From positions 781,076,001 through 781,140,000 of the forward strand of contig NW_027362763.1 in NCBI RefSeq assembly GCF_046119375.1: a DNA stretch of 64,000 bases, given 5' to 3'. Positions 8,401 through 61,864 of this stretch are shown here, in pieces. This DNA is from Phyllobates terribilis (Eukaryota). Below the pieces are notes generated by a model, which was not told the origin of the DNA, searched no databases, and saw only the letters and a program-made list of their open reading frames with translations. A program made the position numbers and the translations under genes. Positions within the stretch are counted from its first letter, which is position 1. Each line of letters begins with the position of its first letter.

Positions 8401-11400
8401 CACAAGAATACATGTAGTACACAGAAATACAGGTAATATACAAGAATACAGGTATTACACAGGAGTACAGGTAATATACAAGAATACAGGTAGTACACAA
8501 GAATACAGGTAATATACAAGAATACAGGAAGTACACAGGAATACAGGTAGTACACAGGAATACAGGTAATCTACAAGAATACAGGTATTACAAAGGAATA
8601 CAGGTAATCTACAAGAATACAGGTATTACACAGGAATACAGGTCATATACAAGAATACAGGAAGTACACAAGAATACAGAGAGTACACAGGAATACAGGT
8701 ATTACACAGGAATACAAGTAATAAACAAGAATACAGGAAGTACAGAGGAATACAGGTAGTACACAATAATACAGGTATTACACAGGAGTACAGGTAATAT
8801 ACAAGAATACAGGTAGTACACAAGAATACAGGTAGTGCACAGGAATACGGGTAATATGCAAGAATACAGGAAATACACAGGAATACAGGTAGTACACAAG
8901 AATACAGGAAGTACACAGGAATACAGGTATTACACAGGAATACAGGTAATATACAAGAATAAGGAAGTACACAGGAATACAGGTATTACACAGGAATACA
9001 GGTAATATACAAGAATACAGGTATTACACAGGAATACAGGAAGTACACAGGAATACAGGTAATATACAAGAATAAGGAAGTACACAGGAATACAGGTATT
9101 ACACAGGAATACAGGAAATATACAAGAATACATCTATTACACAGGAATACAGGTATTACACAAGAATACAAGAAGAACACAAGAATACAGGAAGTGCACA
9201 AGAATACAGGAAGTACACAGGAGTACAGGTAATATACAAGAATACAGGAAGTACATAGGAATACAGGTAATACACAAGAATACAGATAGTACACAGGAAT
9301 ACAGGTATTACATAGGAATACAGGTAATATACAAGAATACAGGAAGTACACTAGAATACAGGTAGTACACAAGAATACAGGTATTACACAGGGATACAGG
9401 TAATATACAAGAATATAGGTAATCTACAAGAATACAGGAAGTACACAGGAATACAGGTAATATACAAGAATACAGGAAGTACACAGGAATGCAGGTATTA
9501 CACAGGAATACAGGTAATATACAAGAATACAAGAAGTACACAGGAATACAGGTATTACACAGGAATACAGGTAATATACAAGAATACAGGAAGTATACAA
9601 GAATACAGGTAGTACACAAGAATACAGGAATACAGGTAATATACAAGAATACAGGTAATATACAAGAATACAGGTATTACACAAGAATACAGGAAGTACA
9701 CAGAAATACAGGTAATATACAAGAATACAGGTATTACACAGGAATACAGGTACTATACAAGAATACAGGAAGTACACAGGAATACAGGTATTACACAGGA
9801 ATGAATACAGGTAATCTACAAGAACACAGGTAGTACACAAGAATACAGGTAATATACAAGAATACAGGTATTACACAGGAATACAGGTAATATGGAAGAA
9901 TACAGGAAGTACACAGGAATACAGGTAATCTACAAGAATACAGGTATTACACAAGAATACAGGTAATCTACAAGAATACAGGTAGTACACAAGAATACAG
10001 GTAATATACAAGAATACAGGTAGTACACAGAAATACAGGTAATCTACAAGAATACAGGTATTACACAGGAATACAGGTAATATACAAGAATACAGGAAGT
10101 ACACAGGAATACAGGTATTACACAGGAATGAATACAGGTAATCTACAAGAATACAGGTAGTACACAAGAATACAGGTAATATACAAGAATACAGGTAGTA
10201 CACAAGAATACAGGTAATATACAAGAATACAGGTATTACACAGGAATATAGGTAATATACAAGAATACAGGAAGTACACATGAATACAGGTATTACACAG
10301 GAATGAATACAGGTAATCTACAAGAATACAGGTAGTACACAAGAATACAGGTAATATACAAGAATACAGGTAGTACACAAGAATACAGGTAATATACAAG
10401 AATACAGGTATTACACAGGAATACAGGTATTACACAGGAATGAATACAGGTAATCTACAAGAATACAGGTATTACACAAGAATACATGTAGTACACAAGA
10501 ATACAGGTAGTACACAGGAATACAGGTAATATACAAGAATACAGGTATTACACAGGAGTACAGGTAATATACAAGAATACAGGTAGTACACAAGAATACA
10601 GGTAATATACAAGAATACAGGTATTACACAGGAATACAGGTATTACAGAGGAATACAGGTAATATACAAGAATACAGGTATTACACAAGAATACAGGAAG
10701 TACACAGAAATACAGGTAATATACAAGAATACAGGTATTACACAGGAATACAGGTAATATACAAGAATACAGGAAGTACAGAAGAATACAGGTAGTACAC
10801 AGGAATACAGGAAGTACACAGGAATACAGGTAATATACAAGAATACAGGTATTACACAGGAATACAGGTAGTACACAAGAATACAGGTAATATACAAGAA
10901 TACAGGTATTACACAGGAATACAGGTAATCTACAAGAATACAGGTATTACACAAGAATACATGTAGTACACAAGAATACAGGTATTACACAAGAATACAT
11001 GTAGTACACAGAAATACAGGTAATATACAAGAATACAGGTATTACACAGGAGTACAGGTAATATACAAGAATACAGGTAGTACACAAGAATACAGGTAAT
11101 ATACAAGAATACAGGAAGTACACAGGAATACAGGTAGTACACAGGAATACAGGTAATCTACAAGAATACAGGTATTACAAAGGAATACAGGTAATCTACA
11201 AGAATACAGGTATTACACAGGAATACAGGTCATATACAAGAATACAGGAAGTACACAAGAATACAGAGAGTACACAGGAATACAGGTATTACACAGGAAT
11301 ACAAGTAATAAACAAGAATACAGGAAGTACAGAGGAATACAGGTAGTACACAAGAATACAGGTATTACACAGGAGTACAGGTAATATACAAGAATACAGG

Positions 11401-14400
11401 TAGTACACAAGAATACAGGTAGTGCACAGGAATACGGGTAATATGCAAGAATACAGGAAATACACAGGAATACAGGTAGTACACAAGAATACAGGAAGTA
11501 CACAGGAATACAGGTATTACACAGGAATACAGGTAATATACAAGAATAAGGAAGTACACAGGAATACAGGTATTACACAGGAATACAGGTAATATACAAG
11601 AATACAGGTATTACACAGGAATACAGGTATTACACAGGAATACAGGAAGTACACAGGAATACAGGTAATATACAAGAATAAGGAAGTACACAGGAATACA
11701 GGTATTACACAGGAATACAGGAAATATACAAGAATACATCTATTACACAGGAATACAGGTATTACACAAGAATACAAGAAGAACACAAGAATACAGGAAG
11801 TGCACAAGAATACAGGAAGTACACAGGAGTACAGGTAATATACAAGAATACAGGAAGTACATAGGAATACAGGTAATACACAAGAATACAGATAGTACAC
11901 AGGAATACAGGTATTACATAGGAATACAGGTAATATACAAGAATACAGGAAGTACACTAGAATACAGGTAGTACACAAGAATACAGGTATTACACAGGGA
12001 TACAGGTAATATACAAGAATATAGGTAATCTACAAGAATACAGGAAGTACACAGGAATACAGGTAATATACAAGAATACAGGAAGTACACAGGAATGCAG
12101 GTATTACACAGGAATACAGGTAATATACAAGAATACAAGAAGTACACAGGAATACAGGTATTACACAGGAATACAGGTAATATACAAGAATACAGGAAGT
12201 ATACAAGAATACAGGTAGTACACAAGAATACAGGAATACAGGTAATATACAAGAATACAGGTAATATACAAGAATACAGGTATTACACAAGAATACAGGA
12301 AGTACACAGAAATACAGGTAATATACAAGAATACAGGTATTACACAGGAATACAGGTACTATACAAGAATACAGGAAGTACACAGGAATACAGGTATTAC
12401 ACAGGAATGAATACAGGTAATCTACAAGAACACAGGTAGTACACAAGAATACAGGTAATATACAAGAATACAGGTATTACACAGGAATACAGGTAATATG
12501 GAAGAATACAGGAAGTACACAGGAATACAGGTAATCTACAAGAATACAGGTATTACACAAGAATACAGGTAATATACAAGAATACAGGTAGTACACAAGA
12601 ATACAGGTAATATACAAGAATACAGGTAGTACACAAGAATACAGGTAATATACAAGAATACAGGTAGTACACAGAAATACAGGTAATCTACAAGAATACA
12701 GGTATTACACAGGAATACAGGTAATATACAAGAATACAGGTAGTACACAAGAATACAGGTAATATACAAGAATACAGGTAGTACACAAGAATACAGGTAA
12801 TATACAAGAATACGGGTAGTACACAGAAATACAGGTAATCTAGAAGAATACAGGTATTACACAAGAATACAGGTAATATACAAGAATACAGGTAGTACAC
12901 AAGAATACAGGTAATATACAAGAATACGGGTAGTACACAGAAATACAGGTAATCTACAAGAATACAGGTATTACACAGGAATACAGGTACTATACAAGAA
13001 TACAGGAAGTGCACAGGAATACAGGTATTACACAGGAATGAATACAGGTAATCTACAAGAATACAGGTAGTACACAAGAATACAGGTAATATACAAGAAT
13101 ACAGGTATTACACAAGAATACAGGTAATATACAAGAATACAGGTATTACACAGGAATACAGGTAATATACAAGAATACAGGAAGTACACAGGAATACAGG
13201 TAATCTACAAGAATACAGGTATTACACAAGAATACAGGTAATCTACAAGAATACAGGTAGTACACAAGAATACAGGTAATATACAAGAATACAGGTAGTA
13301 CACAGAAATACAGGTAATCTACAAGAATACAGGTATTACACAGGAATACAGGTACTATACAAGAATACAGGTAGTACACAGGAATACAGGTATTACACAG
13401 GAATGAATACAGGTAATCTACAAGAATACAGGTAGTACACAAGAATACAGGTAATATACAAGAATACAGGTAGTACACAAGAATACAGGTAATATACAAG
13501 AATACAGGTATTACACAGGAATATAGGTAATATACAAGAATACAGGAAGTACACAGGAATACAGGTATTACACAGGAATGAATACAGGTAATCTACAAGA
13601 ATACAGGTAGTACACAAGAATACAGGTAATATACAAGAATACAGGTAGTACACAAGAATACAGGTAATATACAAGAATACAGGTATTACACAGGAATATA
13701 GGTAATATACAAGAATACAGGAAGTACACAGGAATACAGGTATTACACAGGAATGAATACAGGTAATCTACAAGAATACAGGTAGTACACAAGAATACAG
13801 GTAATATACAAGAATACAGGTAGTACACAAGAATACAGGTAATATACAAGAATACAGGTATTACACAGGAATACAGGTATTACACAGGAATGAATACAGG
13901 TAATCTACAAGAATACAGGTATTACACAAGAAAACATGTAGTACACAAGAATACAGGTAGTACACAGGAATACAGGTAATATACAAGAATACAGGTATTA
14001 CACAGGAGTACAGGTAATATACAAGAATACAGGTATTACCAAGAATACAGGTAATATACAAGAATACAGGTATTACACAGGAATACAGGTATTACAGAGG
14101 AATACAGGTAATATACAAGAATACAGGTAATATACAAGAATACAGGTATTACACAAGAATACAGGAAGTACACAGAAATACAGGTAATATACAAGAATAC
14201 AGGTATTACACAGGAATACAGGTAATATACAAGAATACAGGAAGTACAGAAGAATACAGGTAGTACACAGGAATACAGGAAGTACACAGGAATACAGGTA
14301 ATATACAAGAATACAGGTATTACACAGGAATACAGGTAGTACACAAGAATACAGGTAATATACAAGAATACAGGTATTACACAGGAATACAGGTAATCTA

Positions 14401-17400
14401 CAAGAATACAGGTATTACACAAGAATACATGTAGTACACAAGAATACAGGTATTACACAAGAATACATGTAGTACACAGAAATACAGGTAATATACAAGA
14501 ATACAGGTATTACACAGGAATACAGGTAATCTACAAGAATACAGGTATTACACAAGAATACAGGTAATATACAAGAATACAGGTAGTACACAAGAATACA
14601 GGTAATATACAAGAATACAGGAAGTACACAGGAATACAGGTAGTACACAGGAATACAGGTAATCTACAAGAATACAGGAAGTACACAAGAATACAGAGAG
14701 TACACAGGAATACAGGTATTACACAGGAATACAAGTAATAAACAAGAATACAGGAAGTACAGAGGAATACAGGTAGTACACAAGAATACAGGTATTACAC
14801 AGGAGTACAGGTAATATACAAGAATACAGGTAGTACACAAGAATACAGGTAGTGCACAGGAATACGGGTAATATGCAAGAATACAGGTAATCTACAAGAA
14901 TACAGGAAATACACAGGAATACAGGTAGTACACAAGAATACAGGAAGTACACAGGAATACAGGTATTACACAGGAATACAGGTAATATACAAGAATAAGG
15001 AAGTACACAGGAATACAGGTATTACACAGGAATACAGGTAATATACAAGAATACAGGTATTACACAGGAATACAGGTATTACACAGGAATACAGGAAGTA
15101 CACAGGAATACAGGAAATATACAAGAATACATCTATTACACAGGAATACAGGTATTACACAAGAATACAAGAAGAACACAAGAATACAGGAAGTGCACAA
15201 GAATACAGGAAGTACACAGGAATACAGGTATTACACAGGAATATAGGTAATATACAAGAATACAGGAAGTACATAGGAATACAGGTAATACACAAGAATA
15301 CAGATAGTACACAGGAATACAGGTATTACATAGGAATACAGGTAATATACAAGAATACAGGAAGTACACAGGAATACAGGTAGTATACAAGAATACAGGA
15401 ATACAGGTAATATACAAGAATACAGGAAGTACACTAGAATACAGGTAGTACACAAGAATACAGGTATTACACAGGGATACAGGTAATATACAAGAATATA
15501 GGTAATCTACAAGAATACAGGAAGTACACAGGAATACAGGTAATATACAAGAATACAGGAAGTACACAGGAATGCAGGTATTACACAGGAATACAGGTAA
15601 TATACAAGAATACAAGAAGTACACAGGAATACATGTATTACACAGGAATACAGGTAATATACAAGAATACAGGAAGTATACAAGAATACAGGTAGTACAC
15701 AAGAATACAGGAATACAGGTAATATACAAGAATACAGGAATTACACAGGAATACAGGTAATATGCAAGAATACAAGAAGTACACAAGAATACAGGTAATA
15801 TACAAGAATGCAGGTAATATACAAGAATACAGGTATTACACAGGAATACAGGTAATATACAATGTAGCGCCGGCGTCCCTGCCCTCTGCTAGGCAGGGAC
15901 GCTGTTCCCCTCACCTCTCTGCTCCGTGCCCGGCGTCCTCCTTCCGCTCTGCTGGCAGCGCGCGCTCCTTCCCGGCCACTGTGCTTAGGGCGCGCGCGCG
16001 CTCTCCCTCCCTCTTAAAGGGGCCGCGCGCGCCGTCCTAAGGAGTCCCCGGCCAATGGCCGGAGGACTTCACCATATATAAGGCACCTCCTCCAAAATGG
16101 AGGTGCCCGAGCAATGTTGTTGCACTGTTCACTACTCTGCTTCAGCCCTCAGGTCCCGTTGCCAGTTACCTGCCAGATACCTGCCAGATTCCTGCCAGCT
16201 TGCTGTCTTATTCCTGCCTGATTATCTGCTACCTGCCTGCTAGTCTGAGGTCCGACGGTCTGCCTTACTACTCCTGTCAGTCTGTCTAAGGACCAGCCTG
16301 TCCGCTCACCTGGGAGCGCACTTCAGCCACCTGCCTGCTTGCCTGAGGTCCGACGGTCTGCCTTCCAACTCCTGTCAGTCTGTGTATGGACCAGCTTGCC
16401 TGCTCACCTGGGAGCACACATCTGCTACCTGCCTGCTAGCCTACCTGGAGGCTCCGCCGTCACGTGCTGTGACCACCTGCCTGTCCAGTGACTCCTGCCC
16501 GCTCACCTGGGAGCGCTCATCTGCTGCCTGTCTGCTAGCCTACCTGGAGGCTCTGCCGTCACGTGCTGTGACCACCCGCCTGTCCAGAGACTTCTGCCCG
16601 CTCACCTGGGAGCGCTCATCTGCCGCCTGTCTGTTGGTCTTCCTGGAGGCTCCGCCGTCACATGCTGTGACCACCCGTTCATCCAGAGACTCTCGCCTGC
16701 TCACCTGGGAGCTCACGTCTATCATCAGCCGCCACAGGTCGTACCAACCCTTTACCCAGAGACTGCCCCGGTCACTTGCCGTGACCATCTGCCCGTTCAT
16801 TGAGAGACTGCCCCGGTCACTTGCCGTGACCATCTGCCCGTTCATTCAGAGACTGCCCCGGTCACTTGCCGTGACCATCTGCCCGTTCATTCAGAGACTG
16901 CCCCGGTCACTTGCCGTGACCATCTGCCCGTTCATCCAGAGACTGCCCCGGTCACTTGCCGTGACCTCCAGCCCGTTCACTCAGAGACTGTCCCGGTCAC
17001 CTGCTGTGACTTCCTGCCCGTCTTCCCTGGTCGCCACCCGCTCCCTTACAAGGACCGCCCCCTTGTATAGTAGCTCAGAGGTTCCGCCTCCCAGACCCGT
17101 TACATACAAGAATACAAGAAGTACACAAGAATACAGGAAGTGCACAAAAATACAAGAAGTACACAGGAATACAGGTAATATACAAGAATACAGGAAGTAC
17201 ACAGGAATACAGGTAATATACAAGAATACAGGTAGTACACAAGAATACAGGAAGTACACAGGAATACAGGTAATATACAAGAATACAGGTAATATACAAG
17301 AATACAGGTATTACACAGGAATACAGGTAATATACAAGAATACAGCAAGTACACAAGAATACAGATAGTACACAGGAATGCAGGTAATATACAAGAATAC

Positions 17401-19488
17401 AGGAAGTACACAAGAATACAGGTAGTACACAAGAATACAGGAAGTACACAGGAATACAGGTATTACACAGGAATACAGGTAATATACAAGAATACATGTA
17501 TTACATAGGAATACAGGTAATATACAAGAATACGGGAAGTACACAAGAATACAGGTAGTACACAAGAATACAGGAAGTACACAGGAATACAGGTATTACA
17601 CAGGAATACAGGTAATATACAAGAATACAGGAAGTACACAGGAATACAGGTAATATACAAGAATACAGGTAGTACACAAGAATACAGGTAATATACAAGA
17701 ATACAAGAAGTACACAAGAATACAGGAAGTGCACAAGAATACAGGAAGTACACAGGAGTACAGGTAATATACAAGAATACAGGAAGTACACAGGAATACT
17801 GGTAATATACAAGAATACAGGAAGTACACAGGAATACAGGTAATATACAGGAATACATGTAGTACACAAGAATACAGGTAGTACACAAGAATACAGGTAT
17901 TACTCAGGAATACAGGTAATATACAAGAATACAGGTAATCTACAAGAATACAGGAAGTACACAGGAATACAGGTAATATACAAGAATATAGGAAGTACAC
18001 AGGAATACAGGTATTACACAGGAATACAGGTAGTACACAGAAATACAGGTATTACACAGGAATACAGGTAATCTACAAGAATACAGGAAGTACACAAGAA
18101 TACAGGTAGTACACAAGAATACAGGTATTACACAGGAATACAGGTAATATGCAAGAATACAGGTATTACACAAGAATACAGGTAGTACACAAGAATACAG
18201 GTATTACACAGAAATACAGTTATTACACAGGAATACAGGTAGTTTATAGGAATACAGGCAATACACAGTAATACAGGTAGTACACAGGAATACAGGTAGT
18301 ACACAATAATACAGGTAGTACACAGAAATACAGATAGTACATAGGAATACAGGCAATCCACATTAATACGGGTAGTACACAAGAATACAGGTAGTACATA
18401 GGAATACAGGCAATACACATTAATACAGGTAGTACACAGAAATACAGGTAGTGCACAAGAATACAGGTAGTACACAGATGTACAGGTAGTGCACAGGAAT
18501 ACAGGTAGTACACAGAAATACAGGTAGTACACAGGAATACAGTTAGTACACAATAATACAAGAAGTACCCAGAAATACAGGTAGTACCCAGAAATACAGG
18601 TAGTACACAGAATTACAGGTAGTACATAGAAATACAGGTAGTACATAGAAATACAGGTAGTACACAGGAATACCGGTAGTACACAGGAGTACAGTTAGTA
18701 CACAGGAATACAATGGGTACATAGGAATACATGTAGTACACAGGAATACATGTAGTACACAGGAATACAGGTAGTACAAAGAAATACAGGTAGTACATAG
18801 GAATACAGGTAGTACACAGAAATACAGGTAGTACACAGAAATACATGTAGTACACAGGAATACAGTTAGTACACAGTAATACAAGAAGTACCCAAGAATA
18901 CAGGAAGTACACAGTAATACAAGTAGTGCACTGAAATACAGGTAGTACACAGAAATTCAGGTAGTGCACAGAAATACAGGTAGTACACAGAAATACAGGT
19001 AGTACATAGAAATACAGGTAGTACACAAGAATACTGCTAATACACAAGAATACAGGTCGTACATAGGAATACAGGTAGTGCACAGGAATACAGGTAGTAC
19101 ACAAGAATACTGGTAGTACATAGAAATACAGGTAGTGCACAAGAATATAGGTAGTGCACAGAAATACAGATAGTACATAGAAATACAGGTAGTGCACAAG
19201 AATACTGGTAATACACAAGAATAGAGGTCATACATAGGAATACAGGTAGTGCACAGGAATACAGGTAGTGCACAGGAATATAGGTAGTACACAGGAATGC
19301 AGGTAGCACAAAAGAATACAGGTAATACACAGGAATCTACGTAGTACACAAGACTACAGGAAGTACACAGGAGCACATGTAGTACATAAGAATATAGTTA
19401 GTACTAAGGAATACAAGTAGTGCACAGGAATACAGGTAATACACAGGCATACAAATAGTACACAGGAATACAGGTAGTACACAGGAAT
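5409..19488. repeat. ~14-kb tandem satellite of ~19-bp units (gaatacaggtaatatacaa / gaatacaggtagtacacaa / gaatacaggtattacacag / gaatacaggaagtacacag), interrupted by a solo LTR
   Basis: Directly visible; roughly 650-700 units, with units more diverged after ~18250. Confidence 0.98.
15863..17104 (+). mobile_element. Solo LTR (Gypsy/chromovirus-like), 1242 bp, inserted in the satellite
   Basis: TGTAGCG...CGTTACA termini; 5-bp TSD TACAA (15858-15862 / 17105-17109); CCAAT near 16052; TATATAA at 16075-16081; internal 45-bp tandem repeat (~5-6 copies from 16761) and ~110-bp repeats. Confidence 0.9.
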
Positions 19489-25650: not shown

Positions 25651-26035
25651 TGTTACTTAGTATCCAGTTACCTTCAGTTCCCTTCAGGTTCAATTCAGGA
25701 TTAATTCATATTTCTCACTCTTAAGCAATGGACACACTTAAGGTGATGGACACAGACTAAAGTCTAATAGACTCCTAGCCCACAATATATTTGTAGCAGA
25801 ATGCATTCAGCTGTGAACCAGAGGGGCGTGGTTTGTGCTCAACTTGATCAGCTGATTAAGGCTGAAACAGATGCTGGATAGTCAAAGTCTAAGTAAACAA
25901 GGTCATAAATGAAAGAGGAGGGTAGTTGGTGTTACTTGAAAAACATACCATTAGTATATAGGAGCAGAGAGGTAGAGAGAAATCTGCATGGAAATCAGGA
26001 TGGGAAAGCTGAGTCACGTACCATTAGTATACATA

Positions 26036-27683
26036 CAGTTAGGTCCATATATATTTGGACAGAGACAACATTTTTCTTATTTTGGTTCTAGACATTACCA
26101 CAATGAATTTTAAACAAAACAATTCAGATGCAGTTGAAGTTCAGACTTTCAGCTTTCATTTGAGGGTATCCACATTAAAATTGGATGAAGGGTTTAGGAG
26201 TTTCAGCTCCTTAACATGTGCCACCCTGTTTTTAAAGAGACCAAAAGTAATTGGACAATTGACTCCAATGCTATTTCATGGACAGGTGTGGGCAATCCCT
26301 TCGTTGTGTCATTCTCAATTAAGCAGATAAAAGGCCTGGAGTTGATTTGAGGTGTGGTGCTTGCATTTGGAAGGTTTTGCTGTGAAGTAAACCTGCGGTC
26401 AAAAGAGTTCTCCATACAGGTGAAACAAGCCATCCTTAAGCTGCAAAAACAGAAAAAACCCATCCGAGAAATTGCTACAATAATAGGAATGGCAAAATCT
26501 ACAGTTTGGTACCTCCTGAGAAAGAAAGAAAGCACTGGTGAACTCATCAATGCAAAAAGACCTGGGCGCCCACGTAAGACAACAGTGGTGGACGATCGCA
26601 GAATAATCTCCATGGTGAAGAGAAACCCCTTCACAACAGCCAACCAAGTGCACAACACTCTCCAGGAGGTAGGCGCATCAATATCCAAATCTACCATAAA
26701 GAGAAGACTGCATGAAAGTAAATACAGAGGGTTCACTGCACGGTGCAAGCCACTCATAAGCATCAAGAATAAAAAGGCTAGACTGGACTTTGCTAAAAAA
26801 CAACTAAAAAAGCCAGCACAGTTCTGGAAGAACATTCTTTGGACAGATGAAACCAAGATCAACCTCTACCAAAATGATGGAAAGAGAAAAGTATGGTGAA
26901 GGCGTGGTACAGCTCAAGATCCAAAGCATACCACATCATCTGTAAAACACGGCGGAGGCAGTGTGATGGCTTGGGCATGCATGGCTGCCAGTGGCACTGG
27001 ATCACTAGTGTTTATTGATGATGTGACACAGGACAGAAGCAGCCGAATGAATGCTGATGTTTTCAGAGCCATACTGTGTGCTCAGATCCAGCCAAATACA
27101 GCCAAACTGATTGGTCATCGTTTCATACTACAGATGGACAATGACCCAAAATATAAAGCCAAAGCAACCCAGGAGTTTATTAAAGCAAAGAAGTGAAATA
27201 TTCTTGAATGGCCAAGTCAGTCATCTGATCTCAACCCAATTGAGCATGCATTTCACTTGTTAAAGACTAAACTTCAGACAGAAAGGCCCACAAACAAACA
27301 GCAACTGAGAACCACCGCAGTGAAGGCCTGGCAGAGCATCAAAAAGGAGGAAACACAGCGTCTGGTGATGTCCATGAGTTCAAGACTTAAGGCAGTCATT
27401 GCCAACAAAGGGTTTTCAACCAAGTACTAGAAATGAACATTTTATTTACAATTATTTAATCTGTCCAATTACTTTTGGTCCCTTTAAAAACAGGTTGGCA
27501 CATGTTAAGGAGCTGAAACTCCTAAACCCTTCATCCAATTTTAATGTGGATACCCTCAAATGAAAGCTGAAAGTCTGAACTTCAACCGCATCTGAATTGT
27601 TTTGTTTAAAATTCATTGTGGTAATGTCTAGAACCAAAATTAGAAAAATGTTGTCTCTGTCCAAATATATATGGACCTAACTG
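26036..27683 (+). mobile_element. Full-length Tc1 element (1648 bp), inactivated
   Basis: TA|cagttaggtccatatatatttggacag ... ctgtccaaatatatatggacctaactg|TA; TIRs of ~220 bp. Confidence 0.95.
26393..27430 (+). pseudogene. Tc1 DD34E transposase pseudogene (345 codons, single frame)
   Basis: CTG at the expected start (26393), TGA at 26897-26899 and 27194-27196, no frameshift. Motifs WTDETKIN, QMDNDPKY, WPSQSSDLNPIEH; ends GFSTKY*. Confidence 0.92.
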
Positions 27684-29106
27684 TAACTATAAAAAAAATC
27701 TTTACAAAATTTGTTGGCTAGGGTAGTTATAAAAGAAGAGATGTATCTGAGGGTGTCTGTACCAGAGACAACCCCAGTAGTGGTTCTGATGCCCTTGAAC
27801 ATGTCACCCAAGCATCCTGCATCATTGTATTGTCCCACAAAATAAGTTAAAAAAATGTCAAGTGTACTTAAAAAAAGACATCATATCTAAGAGCTTTTGT
27901 GGATATTCATAGATGAATCTAGTGTTCAATTATTGGTAAGTAGCCTAGTAAAAAAAAAAGTGCCACCCTACAGTTGATTGGAGAACCTGGCCTGGGAACT
28001 AAAATATTAGAACACAAATTGGTTAGTCCTTTTCTGACATGGTTTCATTTTGATCTCTGCTATGGGATTGCAATGTAGAATTGCCTTGTTATACACATCC
28101 AAAAAAAGTATTGTGACCTGCATGCAGTATGAGCAGTCAAATGGAAAAAGCTGCTACACAGTGTCTTTGTCTAGAATGAATATAATGGGTTCAGTTGGGT
28201 TTTATGGTATTTTTTGCAAAATCTGCGGCCTTATTAAAGCAAATTACTACTTGTAGTGTCTACTTTTAGAAAAAAAGCTGCAGTATGCTATATATTTTAG
28301 ACATGTATTTATGATTCAGCATATTTTACTTAAACGTATTTTAAAAGTCGATTGATTGTGTGAGAAAAGTGGTAAAAAAATCAGTTTCTTATGTGTCCAG
28401 CAAGTGAACAAATAACAAACTCAATAATATATTATTTGCTTGTATGTGTGAAATAAAAATTACTGTTATTACTGTCGTCGTTTTGTATTCCAATGACTTT
28501 GATTATGGTCATATAAAATTGTGATTTATTTAAAGCACTATAATTGCATGCCACGAAATGCTTCATTGATATCTTTGCACTTTTAAATGTGCATTTAGCT
28601 TATGTCTATTTTTGCTTGCAAATACGCTAAATTATAAACCATTGTGGACGTAAATAAAAGAGTAGAAATCGTTATATGATAACATATATCCTTGACCCCG
28701 GCATCTAGCACAGGGTACCCATACAACACATAATATGGACTCTCAGCTCTCTTGCTGCTAGTAATGGGCCAAGCTGATAAATAATCCAGTGCATAATCTA
28801 GTGCAGGTAAATAGAATTGGTCAGGATAGGGTTTGGCAATAGGATTGGGGACAGAAGAGGGTAATTTGGCATAGGGTGGACAGCTGACTAGGGATCAACT
28901 TGGCTAAGGGACTGATGGACAGGACACAACACAACAAAGGGAACAGTCAACCAGTCTTGAGTCTTGAGTGGCGCACTGCAATCCTAGAACTGACCTGGCA
29001 TGGGGGCACTTGGTCAGACTTTCACATATTATTGGGGGCAGACACTAACATGGTGAGGGCTGTAGGGTGCTGGTAGATAGGTGACACACACATGAGGTTA
29101 AACTTA

Positions 29107-31059: not shown

Positions 31060-31949
31060 TGTGCTTGTGTTACTTCTAATAGTTGCTGAATGCTTTTAAA
31101 GCAACAGCACTACTTCTGCATGTCACACTCTGCTACAGCACTACTTCTGCATGTCACAACAATACAAACTTATCTCTCACCCACAAGGCCCTCTACACTT
31201 CTGCACAAACCTATATTTCCTCCCTCATCTTTGTCTATCACCCTACCCGTGCTCTCCGCAACTAAAACTAACATCCTCCATAATCCGAACCACCTACCTC
31301 CATCTCTAAGACTTCTTTCTTGCTGCACCAGTTTTATGGATGCACTACCCCGGACAATCTGAATAATACCTAGGCCTGTCTACAGAGATGAGTTTTTAAA
31401 GTACGTTTAAAAAAGTGGGGGCTATCACCTCAATTCACCAACCTAATGCTCCCCTGTTCTGTCTTTTTAAATTTTACTCAGAACCTGGTCCCTCCTTTTC
31501 TGTGTCCACTTCCTCCTTGCACCCAATAGCACTTGGCAACTGTACCTAGACAGATGCTGGCTGGTGACTGGATCATGCAGTTTATTTAAAATGCCCTATT
31601 TATTATAATGATGGCTGGACCATATATTACAAGCACTTCTACCTATAGTCTCCTCTCTATTTCCTTATAGATTGTAAGCTTGCGAGCAGGGCCCTCACTC
31701 CTCCTGTAACTGTTGAACTGTGTTACTTTGTGTAACATACCTGGCGGCGTCCTTGCATGGTGGTCCATCTCCCACTGTGCAAGAGCGCGCACTTGATCTC
31801 CAGTCCAGAATGTCTCTCTGGCTTCCCTCCTTGCTGTCTGTTTGTCTGTTTTGGCTGCATAGGGCGACGCCCGCTGAACTTCCTGTTTCTTGTACCTGCT
31901 GCGGACACGCCCCTGTTGCACCTTCAGCCTATTGCTGTCCATCTTTGGG

Positions 31950-31989
31950 TATTTATACCGCCTTCTTCCTCAAGATGGCGCCTGAGCAT
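31950..31989 (+). promoter_or_regulatory. LTR TATA-like box (tatttata) with predicted transcription start 30 nt downstream (gcctgagcat)
   Basis: TATTTATA at 31950-31957. The start sequence is complementary to the post-LTR primer position. The same TATA/-30/GCCYGAGCA layout occurs in the solo LTR at 16075/16105. Confidence 0.6.
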
Positions 31990-32499
31990 TGTGTCCTGTC
32001 AGTTGGCTTTTTGTCTCTGATGTGCCAGGTCCTTTCCTGTTTTCCTGCCTGTTCTCCAGTTCTGTGTCTGAACTGTGGTCTGTTCTTGTGAGCACGCTTC
32101 TAGCCTGTTCTTTCGCCTTCTAGGGGCTGTATTCCTAGATCTGCCTGTCTGTGCCTTGCGGTATCTGTTCCCGTCTGAACAGAGTCCTGTTTGTGTCCCA
32201 GCCTTGCTGTATTTGTTCCCGTTCCTCGGTTCCCAGTTGTCTGTGCCTCGTTTCTACTTTAGCCTTTTCTCCCTTTTCCCTCTATGTCTGTTTTCTGCGT
32301 CTTTCTGCAGAGTCTGAACTTGCTCCTAAATTCCTTCTCGTCGTCTCTGTACCTCTGTTGTGAATTTAGTGTACGCTCGCTACTTCTTTGTAAGTACTTT
32401 GTGTGCTTCTGGTTCTGCCTTTCCTTCTCCGTCTGCTCTTTGTGAACAGAGTCCTATCCCCTTGCCTTGTCTCGTTCGCCGCTCCGGCGGTTCTAGCCG

Positions 32500-33200
32500 C
32501 TCTGCGGTTTCCGCTCTGCTTCTGCCTCGCCTACCGCTCTGCGGTTTCCGCTCTGCTCCTGCCTTGTTTACCGCTCTGCGGTTTCCGCTCTGCTCCTGCT
32601 TAGCTTGCCGCTCTTGCGGTTTCTGCTCTGCTCCTGCCTTGTTTACCGCTCTGCGGTTTCCGCTCTGCTCCTGCTTAGCTTGCCGCTCTTGCGGTTTCTG
32701 CTCTGCTCCTGCCTTGTTTACCGCTCTGCGGTTTCCGCTCTGCTCCTGCTTTGCTTGCCGCTCTTGCGGTTTCTGCTCTGCTCCTGCCTTGGTTGCCGCT
32801 CTGCGGTTTCCGCTCTGCTCCTGCCTTGTTTACCACTCTGCGGTTTCCGCTCTGCTCCTGCCTTGTTTGCCGCTCTGCGGTTTCCGCTCTGCTCCTGCCT
32901 TGTTTGCCGCTCTGCGGTTTCCGCTCTGCTCCTGCCTTGTTTGCCGCTCTGCGGTTTCCGCTCTGCTGCGGCCTTGTTTGCCGCTCTGCGGTTTCCGCTC
33001 TGCTGCGGCCTTGTTTGCCGCTCTGCGGTTTCCGCTCTGCCGCGGCCTTGTTTGCCGCTCTGCGGTTTCCGCTCTGCTGCGGCCTTGTTTGCCGCTCTGC
33101 GGTTTCCGCTCTGCTGCGGCCTTCTTAGCTGCTCTGCGGTTTCCGCTCTGCTCCTGCCTTGTTTACTGCTCTTGCGGTTTCCACTCTGCTCTTGCCTTGC
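32500..33200. repeat. 37-bp tandem repeat array inside the 5' LTR (gctctgcggtttccgctctgctgcggccttgtttgcc)
   Basis: Directly visible. Confidence 0.95.
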
Positions 33201-33825
33201 TTGCCGCTCCTGCGGTTTCTGCTCTGCATCTGCTCGCTGCTCCGGCAGTCCTGTCCTGCTCTGCTTCTGCTCGCTGCTCCGGCAGCCCCGTCCTGCTCTG
33301 CATCTGCTCGCTGCTCCGGCAGTCCTGTCCTGCTCTGCTTGTGCTCGCTGCTCCGGCAGTCCCGTCCTGCTCTGCTCTTGCCCACCGCTTCGGGCGTTCC
33401 CTCTCTGCTGTGTTTGGCTACCGCATCTGCGGTTCTGTTTCTGTGTCCCAGTCTGTACTGGGTCTTGTCCTCTCTGTGCTCCAGCCCGTCCTTTCGGCCA
33501 GTACCTCCCTGCCTGCATATTCGCCTGTATCCACCCGTCTGCATACCTGCCGTGTTTGCTTATATCCACCAGTCTGTGCCTGCCTAGCCTGCCTGTTCCA
33601 GTAATCCCTGTGTGGGTCAACCCCCGTGTCCGGAGTTTGACCTGGAGTAGCACCTGGTCCCTCTGCCCGGTTTCTCCCTGGTGCACTGGCGTCGTATGCC
33701 GTCGTGCCACCTTGGTCGGATCGGCCAGATACTTAGTCACGCCCCTCCAGGCACTCTCCGGTCCATGGTCCAGTGGAACCACTACTCCCGCACACGCCAG
33801 TCAGTCCGGGCGTGTGCATAACAGC

Positions 33826-33835
33826 ATGCTCAGGC
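33826..33835 (+). promoter_or_regulatory. Putative self-priming primer-binding site
   Basis: atgctcaggc starts 2 nt after the 5' LTR and is the exact reverse complement of 31980-31989. No TGG tRNA-type PBS is present. Confidence 0.7.
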
Positions 33836-33964
33836 CATGGTTCCCGTTGAGCCCCACGGCCTTCGCTCTCTGAGAAGTTTTCCAGCGAATACATGCATTA
33901 AAAATAAATAAATACATTTTTTTTTTTCTCAGCTGAGTTCCAGGCGAATTACGCACCCGTCCAG

Positions 33965-36370
33965 ATGGATCTATCTGCTCTCGTTCCTGCGGATCCGCCA
34001 CGTTACTATGGGGATCCAAGACAAAGTCGTGCATTTGTGGAGCAATGCATGCTACACTTCAAGTTCTACCCTCTATGTTTTCCCACCAATCGGGTTAAGG
34101 TGGCATTCATTATGTCTTACCTGGCGGGTGATGCCTTGGAATGGATCAACCCCCTATATGAAACACAGGATCCGATCCTCCTGGACCTAATGGCCTTCCT
34201 GGTGGCCTTTCTAATGGTCTTCGATGATCCTAACCCGGAGGCTCCTGCTGAAGCTTCACTTCCCAATATCCCGGAGCAGCCCCAATGGGTAATGTGTGTG
34301 GGTAGCGCAATAGTCCTCCAGCCCAATGAGACTACTGCCCACCCAGAATCCTCACAGGGTGACTACGCTTTCCGGAATACTTCTCCCAACCTCAAGAGGC
34401 AGTCCAGACGTGCTAAATGTAGAGGCAAGCCGTCACGCCAGGGTCTGTCCTCCCTGAGACCTCCTGACCCCAACCTTGAAGTCCCTACTGAAGCTTCATC
34501 TCCCTGTATCCCGGAGAAGCCCCAACGGGTAATGTGCGTGGGTAGTGCACCAGTTCTCCTGCCCGAAGAGACTTCTGCCCATCCAGACTCCACACAGGAG
34601 AACTTCCTGCACCCGGCATCAGATGCTTCACCCACTTTAACCGGTGTGCATGTCCAAGGATGCTCCAAAGCTGTGGTTACCTCTGAGTCTGTGCACCTCT
34701 ACTACCTGGCGGAGGACCCCCTGTTGCCTCCTGAATCCTCCGGGATACCACTCGATGACAAATGGAGAGAGACTTCTCTACACTCGGTACTCGATACTTT
34801 GTCCGCTTCGTCCTGTGAGCCTGACAATGGGTACCCCAAAGTGGTAGTTACCCCCGAGTCTCTACACCCCTCCGACCAGGCGGAGGACCTCCAGTTGTCT
34901 CCAGAACCCTTCGGGGTGCTACCTGGTAGCGAAAGGACAGAGACTCTCCTATACTCTGTACCTGATACCTCGCTCGCTTCGTCCAGTGAGTCCAACCTAG
35001 TGTACTCCGAAGCAGAGGTTACTCCCGAGTCTCTACACCCCTCCGACCAGGCGGAGGACCTCCAGTTGTCTCCAGAACCCTACGGGGTGCTACCTGGTAG
35101 CGAAAGGACAGAGACTCTCCTATACTCTGTACCTGATACCTCGCTCGCTTCGTCCAGTGAGTCCAACCTAGTGTACTCCGAAGCAGAGGTTACTCCCGAG
35201 TCTCTACACCCCTCCGACCAGGCGGAGGACCTCCAGTTGTCTCCAGAACCCTTCGGGGTGCCACCTGGTGGTGAATGGACAGAGACTTTCCTATATCCTG
35301 GATCTGATACCTCGCTTGCTTCGTCCAGTGAGTCCGACCTTGTGTACTCTGAAGCAGAGGTTACCCTTGAGTCTCTACACCCCTCTGACCAGGCGGAGGA
35401 CCTCCAGTTGTCTCCAGAACCCTTCGGGGTGCCACCTGGTGGTGAATGGACAGAGACTTTCCTATACTCGGTACCCGATACCTCGCCTGCTTCCTCCAGT
35501 GAGTCCGACCTAGTGTACTCTGAAGCAGATGTTTTCTCTGAGCCTCTGCACTCTTCTGACCCGGCGGAGGACCTCCAGTTGTTTCCTGAATTCTCCGGGG
35601 TACCACCAGATAACAAAGAGACAGTGACTTTTCCTCATTATGTACCTGATAACCCATCTATTTCTTCCTGTGAGCTTGACAAGATGTACCTCGAAGCAGA
35701 GATTACCCCCAAGTCTCTGTCCCCCTCCAACCCGGTGAAGGACTTCCAGTTGTCTCCTGTACCCTCTGGGGTGCCACCTGAAAATATGTGGAGAGAGATT
35801 TCCTTGTGTGCTGTTCCTGGTACTCCACCCGTTTCGTCTGTTGCTAAGGATGGCTGGATAGGAGGTAGCATCCTAGTTAACCAGATGAGATCAATTTTTC
35901 CTGTGGACAGTGGAAGTGATCTCCTTGAAGTGAACGACTGGTCCTCGAATTCCCTGCGGAAGATTCTGGCAGGCCTGAAGAAGAGGGGGCGTAAGGGGGG
36001 GGGGGGTACTGTAACATACCTGGTGGCGTCCTTGCATGGTGGTCCATCTCCCACTGTGCAAGAGCGCGCACTTGATCTCCAGTCCAGAATGTCTCTCTGG
36101 CTTCCCTCCTTGCTGTCCGTTTGTCTGTTTTGGCTGCATAGGGCGACGCCCGCTGAACTTCCTGTTTCTTGTACCTGCTGCGGACACGCCCCTGTTGCAC
36201 CTTCAGCCTATTGCTGTCCATCTTTGGGTATTTATACCACCTTCTTCCTCAAGATGGCGCCTGAGCATTGTGTCCTGTCAGTTGGCTTTTTGTCTCTGAT
36301 GTGCCAGGTCCTTTCCTGTTTTCCTGCCTGTTCTCCAGTTCTTTGTCTGAACTGTGGTCTGTTCTTGTGA
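33965..36370 (+). CDS. 801-aa ORF: N-terminal sushi/RTL-like Gag (capsid) fragment + acidic Ser/Pro-rich 57-aa repeats, reading into the 3' LTR
   Basis: PPRYYGDPRQSRAFVEQCMLHF...FPTNRVKVAFIMSYLAGDALEWINPLY resembles the Gag domain of sushi-derived elements (PEG10/RTL/LDOC1 type). Contains a 171-bp coding repeat. No protease, RT, RNase H or integrase motifs. No stops over 2.4 kb. Confidence 0.75.
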   Translation: MDLSALVPADPPRYYGDPRQSRAFVEQCMLHFKFYPLCFPTNRVKVAFIMSYLAGDALEWINPLYETQDPILLDLMAFLVAFLMVFDDPNPEAPAEASLPNIPEQPQWVMCVGSAIVLQPNETTAHPESSQGDYAFRNTSPNLKRQSRRAKCRGKPSRQGLSSLRPPDPNLEVPTEASSPCIPEKPQRVMCVGSAPVLLPEETSAHPDSTQENFLHPASDASPTLTGVHVQGCSKAVVTSESVHLYYLAEDPLLPPESSGIPLDDKWRETSLHSVLDTLSASSCEPDNGYPKVVVTPESLHPSDQAEDLQLSPEPFGVLPGSERTETLLYSVPDTSLASSSESNLVYSEAEVTPESLHPSDQAEDLQLSPEPYGVLPGSERTETLLYSVPDTSLASSSESNLVYSEAEVTPESLHPSDQAEDLQLSPEPFGVPPGGEWTETFLYPGSDTSLASSSESDLVYSEAEVTLESLHPSDQAEDLQLSPEPFGVPPGGEWTETFLYSVPDTSPASSSESDLVYSEADVFSEPLHSSDPAEDLQLFPEFSGVPPDNKETVTFPHYVPDNPSISSCELDKMYLEAEITPKSLSPSNPVKDFQLSPVPSGVPPENMWREISLCAVPGTPPVSSVAKDGWIGGSILVNQMRSIFPVDSGSDLLEVNDWSSNSLRKILAGLKKRGRKGGGGTVTYLVASLHGGPSPTVQERALDLQSRMSLWLPSLLSVCLFWLHRATPAELPVSCTCCGHAPVAPSAYCCPSLGIYTTFFLKMAPEHCVLSVGFLSLMCQVLSCFPACSPVLCLNCGLFL

Positions 36371-36779
36371 ACACGCTTCTAGCCTGTTCTTTCGCCTTCT
36401 AGGGGCTGTATTCCTAGATCTGCCTGTCTGTGCCTTGCGGTATCTGTTCCCATCTGAACAGAGTCCTGTTTGTGTCCCAGCCTTGCTGTATTTGTTCCCG
36501 TTCCTCGGTTCCCAGTTGTCTGTGCCTCGTTTCTACTTTAGCCTTTTCTCCCTTTTCCCTCTATGTCTGTTTTCTGCGTCTTTCTGCAGAGTCTGAACTT
36601 GCTCCTAAATTCCTTCTCGTCGTCTCTGTACCTCTGTTGTGAATTTAGTGTACGCTCGCTACTTCTTTGTAAGTACTTTGTGTGCTTCTGGTTCTGCCTT
36701 TCCTTCTCCGTCTGTTCTTTGTGAACAGAGTCCTATCCCCTTGCCTTGTCTCGTTCGCCGCTCCGGCGGTTCTAGCCGC

Positions 36780-37760
36780 TCTGCGGTTTCCGCTCTGCTT
36801 CTGCCTCGCCTACCGCTCTGCGGTTTCCGCTCTGCTCCTGCCTTGTTTACCGCTCTGCGGTTTCCGCTCTGCTCCTGCTTAGCTTGCCGCTCTTTCGGTT
36901 TCTGCTCTGCTCCTGCCTTGTTTACCGCTCTGCAGTTTCCGCTCTGCTCCTGCTTAGCTTGCCGCTCTTGCGGTTTCTGCTCTGCTCCTGCCTTGTTTAC
37001 CGCTCTGCGGTTTCCGCTCTGCTCCTGCTTTGCTTGCCGCTCTTGCGGTTTCTGCTCTGCTCCTGCCTTGGTTGCCGCTCTGCGGTTTCCGCTCTGCTCC
37101 TGCCTTCTTAGCCGCTCTGCGGTTTCCGCTCTGCTCCTGCCTTGTTTACCGCTCTGCGGTTTCCGCTCTGCTCCTGCCTTGTTTACCGCTCTGAGGTTTC
37201 CGCTCTGCTCCTGCCTTGTTTACCGCTCTGCGGTTTCCGCTCTGCTCCTGCCATGTTTGCCGCTCTGCGGTTTCCGCTCTGCTGCGGCCTTGTTTGCCGC
37301 TCTGCGGTTTCCGCTCTGCTGCGACCTTGTTTGCCGCTCTGCGGTTTCCGCTCTGCTGCGGCCTTGTTTGCCGCTCTGCGGTTTCCGCTCTGCTGCGGCC
37401 TTGTTTGCCGCTCTGCGGTTTCCGCTCTGCTGTGGCCTTGTTTGCCGCTCTGCGGTTTCCGCTCTGCTGCGGCCTTGTTTGCCGCTCTGCGGTTTCCGCT
37501 CTGCTGCGGCCTTGTTTGCCGCTCTGCTGCCGCCTTGTTTGCCGCTCTGCGGTTTCCGCTCTGCTGCGGCCTTGTTTGCCGCTCTGCGGTTTCCGCTCTG
37601 CTGCGGCCTTGTTTGCCGCTCTGCGGTTTCCGCTCTGCTGCGGCCTTGTTTGCCGCTCTGCGGTTTCCGCTCTGCTGCGGCCTTCTTAGCCGCTCTGCGG
37701 TTTCCGCTCTGCTCCTGCCTTGTTTACCACTCTTGCGGTTTCCACTCTGCTCTTGCCTTG
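36780..37760. repeat. 37-bp tandem repeat array inside the 3' LTR (longer than the 5' copy)
   Basis: The 3' LTR is 263 bp longer than the 5' LTR, mostly from extra units. Confidence 0.95.
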
Positions 37761-38748
37761 CTTGCCGCTCCTGCGGTTTCTGCTCTGCATCTGCTCGCTG
37801 CTCCGGCAGTCCTGTCCTGCTCTGCTTCTGCCCGCTGCTCCGGCAGCCCCGTCCTGCTCTGCATCTGCTCCGGCAGTCCTGTCCTGCTCTGCTTGTGCTC
37901 GCTGCTTCGGCAGTCCCGTCCTGCTCTGCTCTTGCCCACCGCTTCGGGCGTTCCCTCTCTGCTGTGTTTGGCTACCGCATCTGCGGTTCTGTTTCTGTGT
38001 CCCAGTCTGTACTGGGTCTTGTCCTCTCTGTGCTCCAGCCCGTCCTTTCGGCCAGTACCTCCCTGCCTGCATATTCGCCTGTATCCACCTGCCGTGTTTG
38101 CTTATATCCACCAGTCTGTGCCAGCCTAGCCTGCCTGTTCCAGTAATCCCTGTGTGGGTCAACCCCCGTGTCCGGAGTTTGACCTGGAGTAGCACCTGGC
38201 CCCTCTGCCCGGTTTCTCCCTGGTGCACTGGCGTCGTATGCCGTCGTGCCACCTTGGTCGGATCGGCCAGATACTTAGTCACGCCCCTCCAAGCACTCTC
38301 CGGTCCATGGTCCAGTGGAACCACTACTCCTGCACACGCCAGTCAGTCCGGGCGTGTGCATAACACTTTGTGATGTCTTTATTGTTTGTACATGTCTCCA
38401 CCTAATTGTAAAGCGCTGCGGAATTTGTTGGCTTTGTATAAATAAAATTATTATTATTATATGCCAAATTATAATTTTGGTCAGTCCTGGAAGTCACAGT
38501 GTACTGTGGTTCTGTCTGTTGCTCTAAGGAGTGCTTCCCTCCACTAAGCTCTGAGCCATTTTCATGGCACAGGTTTAGTACATTTATTTTGTTTATCCTT
38601 TTTATTTTATGTGATTGTAAATACTGCATTGTTTTGTCCATTTTGTAACATCTTTGTATATTTTTTATAAACACTGCCTACGTTTTCCTGATAAAATATA
38701 TAAAATTGAATAGCTTCATTCTTCTTGCTCTATAAACCGCATCCTGAA

Positions 38749-61400: not shown

Positions 61401-61864
61401 CAGTGCGTCGAGGCAGTGGAGGAAGCTCTGCACAAAGAGGGAGCAGAAGCAGCGCCTCAGCACAAGGCAAGACCAGAATGGCCGAAATGTGGCAAAGTTT
61501 TGTGTCCCCGCCGCCACAAATGTCTACACCATCACAGACGGCTCCAGTCAGCAGGAGGCAACGTTTCTGTCAGTTGGTGACAGACTACATGTCTTGCCCT
61601 CTTAGTGTACTCCCAGACGGCTCTTCTCCCTTCAAGTTTTGGGTCTGTAAGCTGGATACATGGCCAGAGCTTAGTCAGTATGCATTGGAGGTGCTAGCTT
61701 GCCCTGCTGCTAGTGTATTATCGGAACGCGTCTTTAGTGCCGCAGGTGGTGTACTAACAGAACGTCGCATGCGACTATCCTCCGATAACGTTGACTGGCT
61801 TACTTTCTTCAAAATGAACAAGGCCTGGATCTCTCATAAATTTGCCAGTCCTCTTCCAGAATAA
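58478..61864 (+). CDS. hAT transposase (BED zinc finger, DDE core, C-terminal dimerisation domain); 1128 codons with one in-frame TGA at 59183-59185, 867 aa from ATG 59261
   Basis: AWSFF...CKLC...NMWKHVRTKH (BED), LTTDAWTS, VVCDNGRN, CLAHVLNLVV, PTRWNST, WPELSQYALEVLACPAASVLSERVFS. The two track ORFs are in the same frame, 13 codons apart. Confidence 0.9.

Follow-up and report, generated by a model that had tools for sequence, protein, structure and literature searches.

The 64,000-nucleotide stretch of Phyllobates terribilis DNA analyzed here (hereafter the window; NCBI RefSeq assembly GCF_046119375.1, contig NW_027362763.1, positions 781,076,001 to 781,140,000 of the forward strand) contains a long terminal repeat (LTR) retrotransposon of 6,635 bp that lacks pol and carries a single open reading frame (ORF), the product of which begins with the N-terminal lobe (N-lobe) of a retrotransposon capsid. 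An earlier note on this DNA, made from the sequence alone, had described the element as complete, young and non-autonomous, with a Gag-derived protein. The present analysis supports the existence of a chromovirus-derived family of thousands of copies that is non-autonomous and has moved recently, and indicates that its ORF is under selection, as that note had asked to be examined.

The element and its family

A perfect CTTTG target-site duplication (TSD) flanks the element on both ends and, together with the giant LTRs and the polypurine tract (PPT), confirms that it is structurally complete (Table 1). The interior spans 2,186 bp. The two LTRs differ by 7 substitutions in the first 706 bp, in agreement with the low divergence reported earlier, and by 24 across the whole LTR; the gap in their lengths consists of 37- and 245-bp indels in a 37-bp tandem array, which is the source of LTR length variation, plus indels of 7 and 12 bp. 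A single frame stays open between 33908 and 36370, with 801 amino acids counted from the ATG at 33965. The earlier description of the interior as one open frame without pol is correct, except that the frame does not end in the interior and continues for 361 nt into the 3′ LTR. Its end differs among copies, tracking the length of the G-run in the PPT, with C-terminal endpoints at +5, +30, +130, +229, +361 or later in the LTR. The read-through frame is common to 27 of 37 copies in the position sample described below. In the youngest subfamily (L181, L184, L190 and about ten other position-sampled copies), an A within the G-run fixes the frame that continues for 229 nt in the LTR, and the protein gains a hydrophobic end rich in cysteine. 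The idea that the read-through tail is a special domain found no support: the frame depends on the G-run, and read-through is also seen in an autonomous copy. Given that autonomous relatives have both features, the giant repeat-filled LTR and the read-through are inherited traits.

Table 1. Coordinates of the element's features (window numbering unless a locus is named)
Feature	Position	Strand	Remark
Left TSD, CTTTG	31726..31730	no strand	
5′ LTR, 2,093 bp, TG...CA	31731..33823	+	
TATA-like box	31950..31957	+	~30 nt ahead of the putative RNA start; presumed function; same layout in autonomous relatives
Self-primer, putative RNA 5′ end	31980..31989	+	exact complement of the primer site
Predicted splice donor GTAAGT	32390..32395	+	takes the place of GTGAGT ~30 nt upstream in other LTR types
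37-bp tandem array, 5′ LTR	32496..33227	+	counterpart in 3′ LTR at 36775-37788
U5 (unique 5′) block	33645..33747	+	78-82% identity with one autonomous chromovirus branch; candidate shared cis signal
Self-priming primer-binding site	33826..33835	+	
Relic of original gag start	33837..33911	+	now a 24-codon upstream ORF
Polypyrimidine tract and AG	33917..33932	+	predicted splice acceptor
Single ORF	33965..36370	+	801 amino acids in the window copy
Capsid N-lobe (DUF4939)	33995..34231	+	residues ~11-89; C-lobe and zinc knuckle lacking
~Seven repeats of 171 bp (57 amino acids)	34673..35872	+	S/P/E-rich, net charge -61
PPT	35977..36006	+	encodes basic tail homologous to the last residues of autonomous Pol
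3′ LTR, 2,356 bp, TG...CA	36010..38365	+	first 361 nt inside the ORF in the window copy
Right TSD, CTTTG	38366..38370	no strand	
Two-N-lobe subfamily	L139:4300-6651, and L140	- (L139)	

Across the genome, the exact LTR-primer junction has 8,631 matches, as against none for a reversed-pattern control. To avoid choice by similarity, the first 40 junction matches along one contig (C1) were taken as a position sample. All 40 copies lack pol; in 39 the interior measures 1.4-2.9 kb (median 1,990 bp), the remaining copy being further deleted, and the median LTR is 1,871 bp. The TSD is perfect in 37 of the 38 scorable copies, and 17 of 38 LTR pairs show 0-1 differences over ~850 sites. The youth claimed earlier therefore belongs to the family, which has been mobile recently, but not to the window copy, which with 10 LTR differences in 888 sampled sites exceeds the age of most copies in the position sample (median 2 differences over ~850). 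In 32 of 40 copies, and in 16 of the 17 youngest, the ORF runs uninterrupted to the PPT, so that the pol-less structure and the open frame are indeed common property of the copies. Moreover, neither the autonomous Pol nor the C-terminal lobe (C-lobe) of Gag with the nucleocapsid zinc knuckle, used as tblastn queries, had a match in any of 126 family interiors, all of which thus lack the protease (PR), reverse transcriptase (RT), RNase H (RH) and integrase (IN) with chromodomain that characterize an autonomous chromovirus. Among 32 loci picked by LTR similarity, we found 18 full pol-less copies, 12 solo LTRs with TSD, one solo-like LTR without TSD and one internally deleted copy, and no pol-bearing sister with the same LTR. 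Older subfamilies, at ~88-95% identity, follow the same plan, and the repeat number varies freely among copies in steps of 57 codons. Paired LTRs, a primer site, a PPT and TSDs, together with numerous independent insertions and a shared interior without enzymes, give the family the structure of a non-autonomous LTR retrotransposon. The case that the earlier note held against its own proposal, namely a deletion derivative with pol-bearing sisters or random ORF disruption, was examined and fails; a one-off derivative is ruled out by the 8,631 junctions and the shared pol-less plan of the sampled copies.

At ~6 kb per copy, with solo LTRs uncounted, the family is estimated to contribute ~50 Mb, near 0.5% of the 10.6-Gb genome. 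The element stretch is present in sequencing runs of two organism codes and hence is probably not confined to one species. Several loci are tandem arrays sharing LTRs (LTR-interior-LTR-interior: L102-L103, L108, L109, and L033), and the L102-L103 array sits within autonomous-type pol on the opposite strand.

Chromovirus ancestry, expression signals and the half-capsid

The primer site recognized in the earlier note is present and is explained by self-priming: it is the exact complement of ten LTR bases located 30 nt past the TATA-like box, and an exact 10-nt self-primer complement occurs in 84 of 93 LTRs. This layout is typical of Tf1/sushi chromoviruses (bioRxiv 10.1101/2022.12.06.519325). 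An autonomous chromovirus family in the same genome (L221-L240) has the same self-priming layout with covarying primer letters, and encodes a 316-amino-acid Gag followed by a PR-RT-RH-IN-chromodomain Pol. Assignment of the element to Tf1/sushi is further backed by Gag homology, with 45 of 94 residues identical to the Gag of a chromodomain-bearing element (E 2e-28). The autonomous relatives also have TG...CA LTRs with internal repeats, a PPT overlapping the end of Pol, and G-run read-through into the LTR, and their N-lobe is 48% identical; they differ in having a full Gag with zinc knuckle, a complete Pol and LTRs of only ~1.0-1.3 kb, and the strong splice donor motif discussed below is found in only one of four of their LTRs checked. 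Junctions of the autonomous type number 19,506 plus ~730, of which 40 loci were inspected while others may be incomplete, and some members have near-identical LTR ends.

Several segments link the element to this family. The ~100-bp U5 block is 78-82% identical between the element and one autonomous branch, the 38 nt that follow the LTR can be aligned with the beginning of autonomous gag, 14 consecutive nt being identical, and the last residues ahead of the PPT resemble the end of autonomous Pol. Because the U5 block, primer site, gag start and Pol tail are common to both, descent of the element from the autonomous chromovirus family is well supported by sequence comparison, and the same family is likely to be its present-day helper. 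The search for a helper through LTR-end and primer similarity, which the earlier note had proposed, has thus yielded an autonomous candidate, whose helper role we infer. Shortened members of the autonomous family (L238, also L233 and L234) have interiors of ~1.5-3.9 kb, and other deletion derivatives of it may form further non-autonomous families. The window itself holds a solo LTR of the autonomous family (15863-17104, + strand; ~82% to L228), embedded in a 19-bp satellite array of ~13 kb and ~670 units (5409-15862 and 17106-19488).

With respect to expression, the old gag ATG, beside the primer site, is now the start of a short ORF, which ends ahead of the main ATG, in any frame, in 99 of 100 copies. 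The T-rich tract between this short ORF and the main ATG has a terminal AG in 99 of 100 copies, across 16 tract endings, its last ten letters occurring in 17 forms. A strong donor motif is found on the sense strand of 89 of 93 LTRs, compared with the antisense strand of 7 and an expectation of 0.32 per shuffled LTR. The usual donor is present in 49 copies; in the window LTR type (17 copies) it is mutated and a new donor lies ~30 nt downstream, both donors occur in one copy and neither in 5, and 24 were unmatched in the test. These signals fit a predicted intron that would excise the repeats, U5 and the primer site. None of the runs listed as containing the stretch is recorded as RNA. Read contigs from 4 of 8 runs cover the element stretch, with the donor outside the part covered and with reads cut off where the T-rich tract lies. 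Among the read ends listed (197 more are unlisted), none is a loose end at the acceptor, and in two contigs of one run (X1) the acceptor AG is joined to the ORF, as in unspliced RNA or DNA. Pattern searches for spliced retrocopies in the genome gave none among 9 and 5 matches, respectively, and no AATAAA or ATTAAA polyadenylation signal was found in the LTRs examined. The A/T-rich acceptor segment (window 33876-33947) is flanked by an imperfect direct repeat of ~15 nt and is absent from copy L253, which suggests an origin by insertion or duplication within the former gag start.

The sole Pfam match in the ORF is an N-terminal DUF4939 domain (E 1.2e-6; 28.8 bits, slightly short of the curated threshold of 29). 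Alignment to the autonomous Gag pairs residues 11-104 with its residues 77-170 and identifies this part of the protein as the capsid N-lobe. The Gag derivation claimed in the earlier note holds for this region, but for only ~80 residues, C-lobe and zinc knuckle being absent. A structure model of the N-lobe (predicted local distance difference test score, pLDDT, 85) has capsid lobes as all of its top 35 structural matches, including the Ty3 N-lobe (Z 7.6, root-mean-square deviation 2.3, 73 aligned) and dArc1 (Z 9.3, root-mean-square deviation 7.9, 87 aligned); given that such Z values are moderate for a domain built of helices, it is chiefly the sequence alignment that supports the assignment. 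The N-lobe is followed by a duplicated 45-amino-acid segment with a basic patch, the acidic 57-amino-acid repeats, the Pol-derived basic tail and the LTR-encoded end. A HMMER protein search retrieved 1,278 N-lobe relatives (best 51% identity), of which the top 8 are ordinary Gags or gene-model chimeras; word-indexed protein database searches found no relative, a PDB sequence search no significant match, and Foldseek no match with E < 0.001. Copies L139 and L140 encode two diverged N-lobes in tandem and in frame, with a ratio of nonsynonymous to synonymous substitution rates (dN/dS) of 0.59-0.65 between the lobes. Single-lobe copies are mosaics of the two N-lobe types and look like recombinant collapses of the two lobes.

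A predicted complex between the N-lobe and the helper capsid scored 0.46, against 0.00 for the best control, with runs sharing at least 57% of contacts and a partner pLDDT of at least 78. Of the solved pairs, 51 of 78 reach the score mark, as do 2 of 108 mismatched pairs; at scores up to 0.60 only 5 of the 78 solved pairs reach it, along with all 4 passing mismatches. The prediction lends weak support to such a contact and may reflect likeness only, since similar capsids have already been solved and the model may recall them.

Selection on the frame and possible roles of the protein

Selection was assessed in 100 copies, after segmental duplicates were dropped and 8 loci chosen by protein identity, L139, L140 and L189 (which proved single-lobed) were left out. 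Variants were classed against the commonest codon of each column, and those present in two or more copies were counted as shared; shared variants are expected to have arisen mostly in replicating lineages. The ratio of nonsynonymous to synonymous variants is 313:160 among shared and 410:118 among private variants (odds ratio 0.56, p 5.5e-5), as against odds ratios of 1.07 and 1.13 in shifted-frame controls; with CpG sites removed and a sharing threshold of 2, the odds ratio remains at 0.61 (p 0.0015). The ORF has no shared stop, compared with 12 private ones (p 0.00055), while the other two frames contain 42 majority stops and 38 shared stops, and the shared indels seen sum to multiples of 3. 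Within the N-lobe, shared amino-acid changes fall at 5 of 26 positions conserved in 107 distant Gags versus 31 of 54 others (p 0.0017), whereas private changes are unbiased (13 of 26 versus 31 of 54, p 0.63); N-lobe dN/dS is 0.25-0.69, below 1 in 21 of 21 pairs. Subfamilies diverge by up to ~12%, and outer repeat units by 50-70 of 171 nt, without a stop. Private-variant ratios exceed 1 in the tail, so the site counts are rough. Statistically, these data show that replicating lineages keep the frame open and spare conserved capsid residues. We read them as indicating that the frame is needed throughout, that the N-lobe fold is needed but relaxed, and that the tail is a spacer.

With respect to function, for which the earlier note had offered three candidate roles (capsid modifier, packaging parasite or restriction-like factor), the account that we rank first, with a probability of roughly 45%, is that the half-capsid co-assembles with helper Gag in a manner that favors its own RNA, that is, as a cis-favoring adaptor. 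By analogy with Tf1/sushi biology, the RNA would start near 31980 and prime its own reverse transcription, and the shared U5, primer site, gag start and Pol tail point to copying by the enzymes and particles of the related autonomous chromovirus. The protein is predicted to be made from a spliced RNA or by re-initiation past the 24-codon upstream ORF; contacts of its N-lobe with the helper capsid would give the encoding copy a packaging advantage, with the acidic repeat tail serving as a flexible spacer. An ORF kept by every replicating lineage should benefit the copy that encodes it, either directly or because few copies are active per cell; the absence of shared stops fits a cis-acting own protein. 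This model comes first because of the cis action of mouse IAP 1-delta-1 and the entry of RTL8 into PEG10 particles, both considered below.

A number of observations count against the adaptor model or the selection that underlies it. When CpG sites are removed and the sharing threshold is raised to 4, the contrast between shared and private variants weakens (odds ratio 0.71, p 0.06), and the p-values overstate independence because the copies are related and recombining. Constraint on the N-lobe is far weaker than in autonomous Gag (dN/dS 0.04-0.24, 15 pairs), and the linker, the tail and the old or outer repeat units have dN/dS near 1. Furthermore, the protein has no zinc knuckle and only two short basic patches, which leaves unexplained how it would hold RNA; a spliced mRNA would lack the primer site, so that protein made from it would not sit on packageable RNA; and RTL8, the closest characterized half-capsid, inhibits particles instead of helping them. 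Eight copies of one lineage have lost the first acceptor AG; further AGs follow at a short distance. As for the helper, it is proposed from similarity, only some of the 30 loci of autonomous type that were examined carry the U5 block, and the N-lobe synonymous sites are saturated relative to the autonomous family.

The strongest competitor, which we nevertheless consider unlikely, is that translation alone matters: an open frame reaching to the 3′ LTR would avert nonsense-mediated decay or route the RNA to assembly sites, and the N-lobe would be kept folded merely to avoid harm. This would account for a tail and old repeats that stay stop-free and in frame at a dN/dS near 1, for the free endpoint of the C-terminus and for the freely varying number of 57-codon units, but not for the avoidance of conserved capsid positions by shared changes, for an N-lobe dN/dS below 1 in every pair after the loss of pol, or for the two copies that retain two diverged N-lobes in frame. 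It is still more doubtful that the half-capsid is an antagonist comparable to RTL8 or Ty1-p22, which poisons or remodels helper particles and so limits helper copying or host damage, with packaging left to RNA signals. RTL8, of the same domain content, is reported to bind the PEG10 N-lobe and to lower particle yield (PMC11684626); a separate, predicted spliced mRNA would suit a trans-acting product, and circulating mosaic N-lobe types are expected of an interface under conflict. However, trans inhibition of the helper harms an element that depends on it, and non-producers should spread, yet none of the 100 copies carries a shared stop; moreover, no strong restriction of the helper is evident, because the 19,506 helper-type junctions are numerous and include near-identical LTR pairs. 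Least probable by far, and disfavored, is a passive relic spread in bursts from a few masters whose frame was open by chance: the family includes many very young copies, thousands of copies can stem from a handful of masters, and LTR read-through also occurs in an autonomous copy, but the subfamily and repeat divergence without a stop, the concentration of majority and shared stops in the other two frames and the frame-preserving net length of shared indels all speak against it.

Elsewhere in the window lie a Tc1/Sleeping-Beauty-like transposon (1022-2669, + strand) with 210-bp inverted repeats that match at 99% and a transposase frame open over 358 codons (1366-2442); another inverted-repeat element, with 230-bp repeats (26028-27691); and an open 892-codon hAT transposase frame with a BED finger and a dimerization domain (59186-61864, + strand), followed by a 203-bp tandem array from 61929.

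Relation to known elements and domesticated genes

Other non-autonomous LTR elements are already known to retain a Gag-derived ORF, among them TR-GAG of plants and wheat RLG_Sabrina_SA and RLG_WHAM (PMC4350172; PMC9744471; PMC13570524) as well as IAP 1-delta-1, and the earlier note's term "undescribed system" was therefore an overstatement. The plant elements are likewise non-autonomous, high-copy and active, with one Gag-derived ORF and no RT or integrase. They differ in keeping a Gag precursor, often with protease, that is thought to build particles, whereas the present element retains the N-lobe only; furthermore, TR-GAG elements are below 4 kb and described in plants, in contrast to a 6.6-kb, self-priming element with acidic repeats. 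With its incomplete Gag precursor and its length over 4 kb, the element falls outside the TR-GAG definition. Beet families are further Gag-keeping non-autonomous LTR elements that resemble it. Mammalian MaLR elements carry a gag-like ORF. They too form a very large non-autonomous vertebrate LTR group, but are described as related to ERV-L with mere traces of retroviral homology, and are not self-priming chromoviruses (PMC6466679).

A precedent for the proposed mechanism is IAP 1-delta-1, the fusion protein of which reportedly promotes retrotransposition in cis, with helper Gag and Pol still required (PMC6466679; PMC7411935). It is similarly a deleted, helper-dependent and very successful element with one in-frame ORF running from gag to the end of pol; however, it is a betaretrovirus-like endogenous retrovirus with a simple 1.9-kb deletion, whereas the present chromovirus derivative has lost nearly all of pol and half of the capsid and has a new repeat tail, a new start codon and a predicted intron. 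In domain content, the element resembles RTL8 and LDOC1, so the likeness to RTL/LDOC1 drawn in the earlier note is real at this level: these proteins consist of a capsid N-lobe without C-lobe from the same retrotransposon lineage (DUF4939), and RTL8 both attaches to the N-lobe of PEG10 and becomes part of the particles that PEG10 forms (PMC11684626; PMC10516033). Unlike RTL8 and LDOC1, which are fixed mammalian host genes without LTRs, the family studied here is mobile, with weaker constraint and a tail of 500-600 residues; its 8,631 junctions and 17 of 38 LTR pairs at 0-1 differences are incompatible with a fixed, immobile, low-copy locus. Literature searches of open-access scope, outside which Repbase and Dfam may list the family, found no description of a mobile half-capsid derivative of a chromovirus. 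We tentatively put forward, as a composite picture that is more apt to be wrong in some part than right in all, a living satellite retrotransposon with a half-capsid as a separately spliced accessory protein for boarding or remodeling the helper particle, in effect a mobile, selfish counterpart and forerunner of RTL8/LDOC1-type genes.

The family, which Pol-based surveys of Ty3 activity such as that in PMC12822217 would miss, amounts to a natural population experiment, with thousands of dated copies, at least two N-lobe types that recombine and a variant with two lobes, and should be useful in studies of competition for helper particles among non-autonomous LTR elements. RTL8 and LDOC1 are described as having become truncated early in their existence as genes (PMC10516033); in the present case, a still-mobile element under element-level selection carries this same truncation, which offers a testable route by which half-capsid genes arise. 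If the composite picture above is true, half-capsid proteins and exon-intron signals can evolve inside transposons ahead of host domestication.

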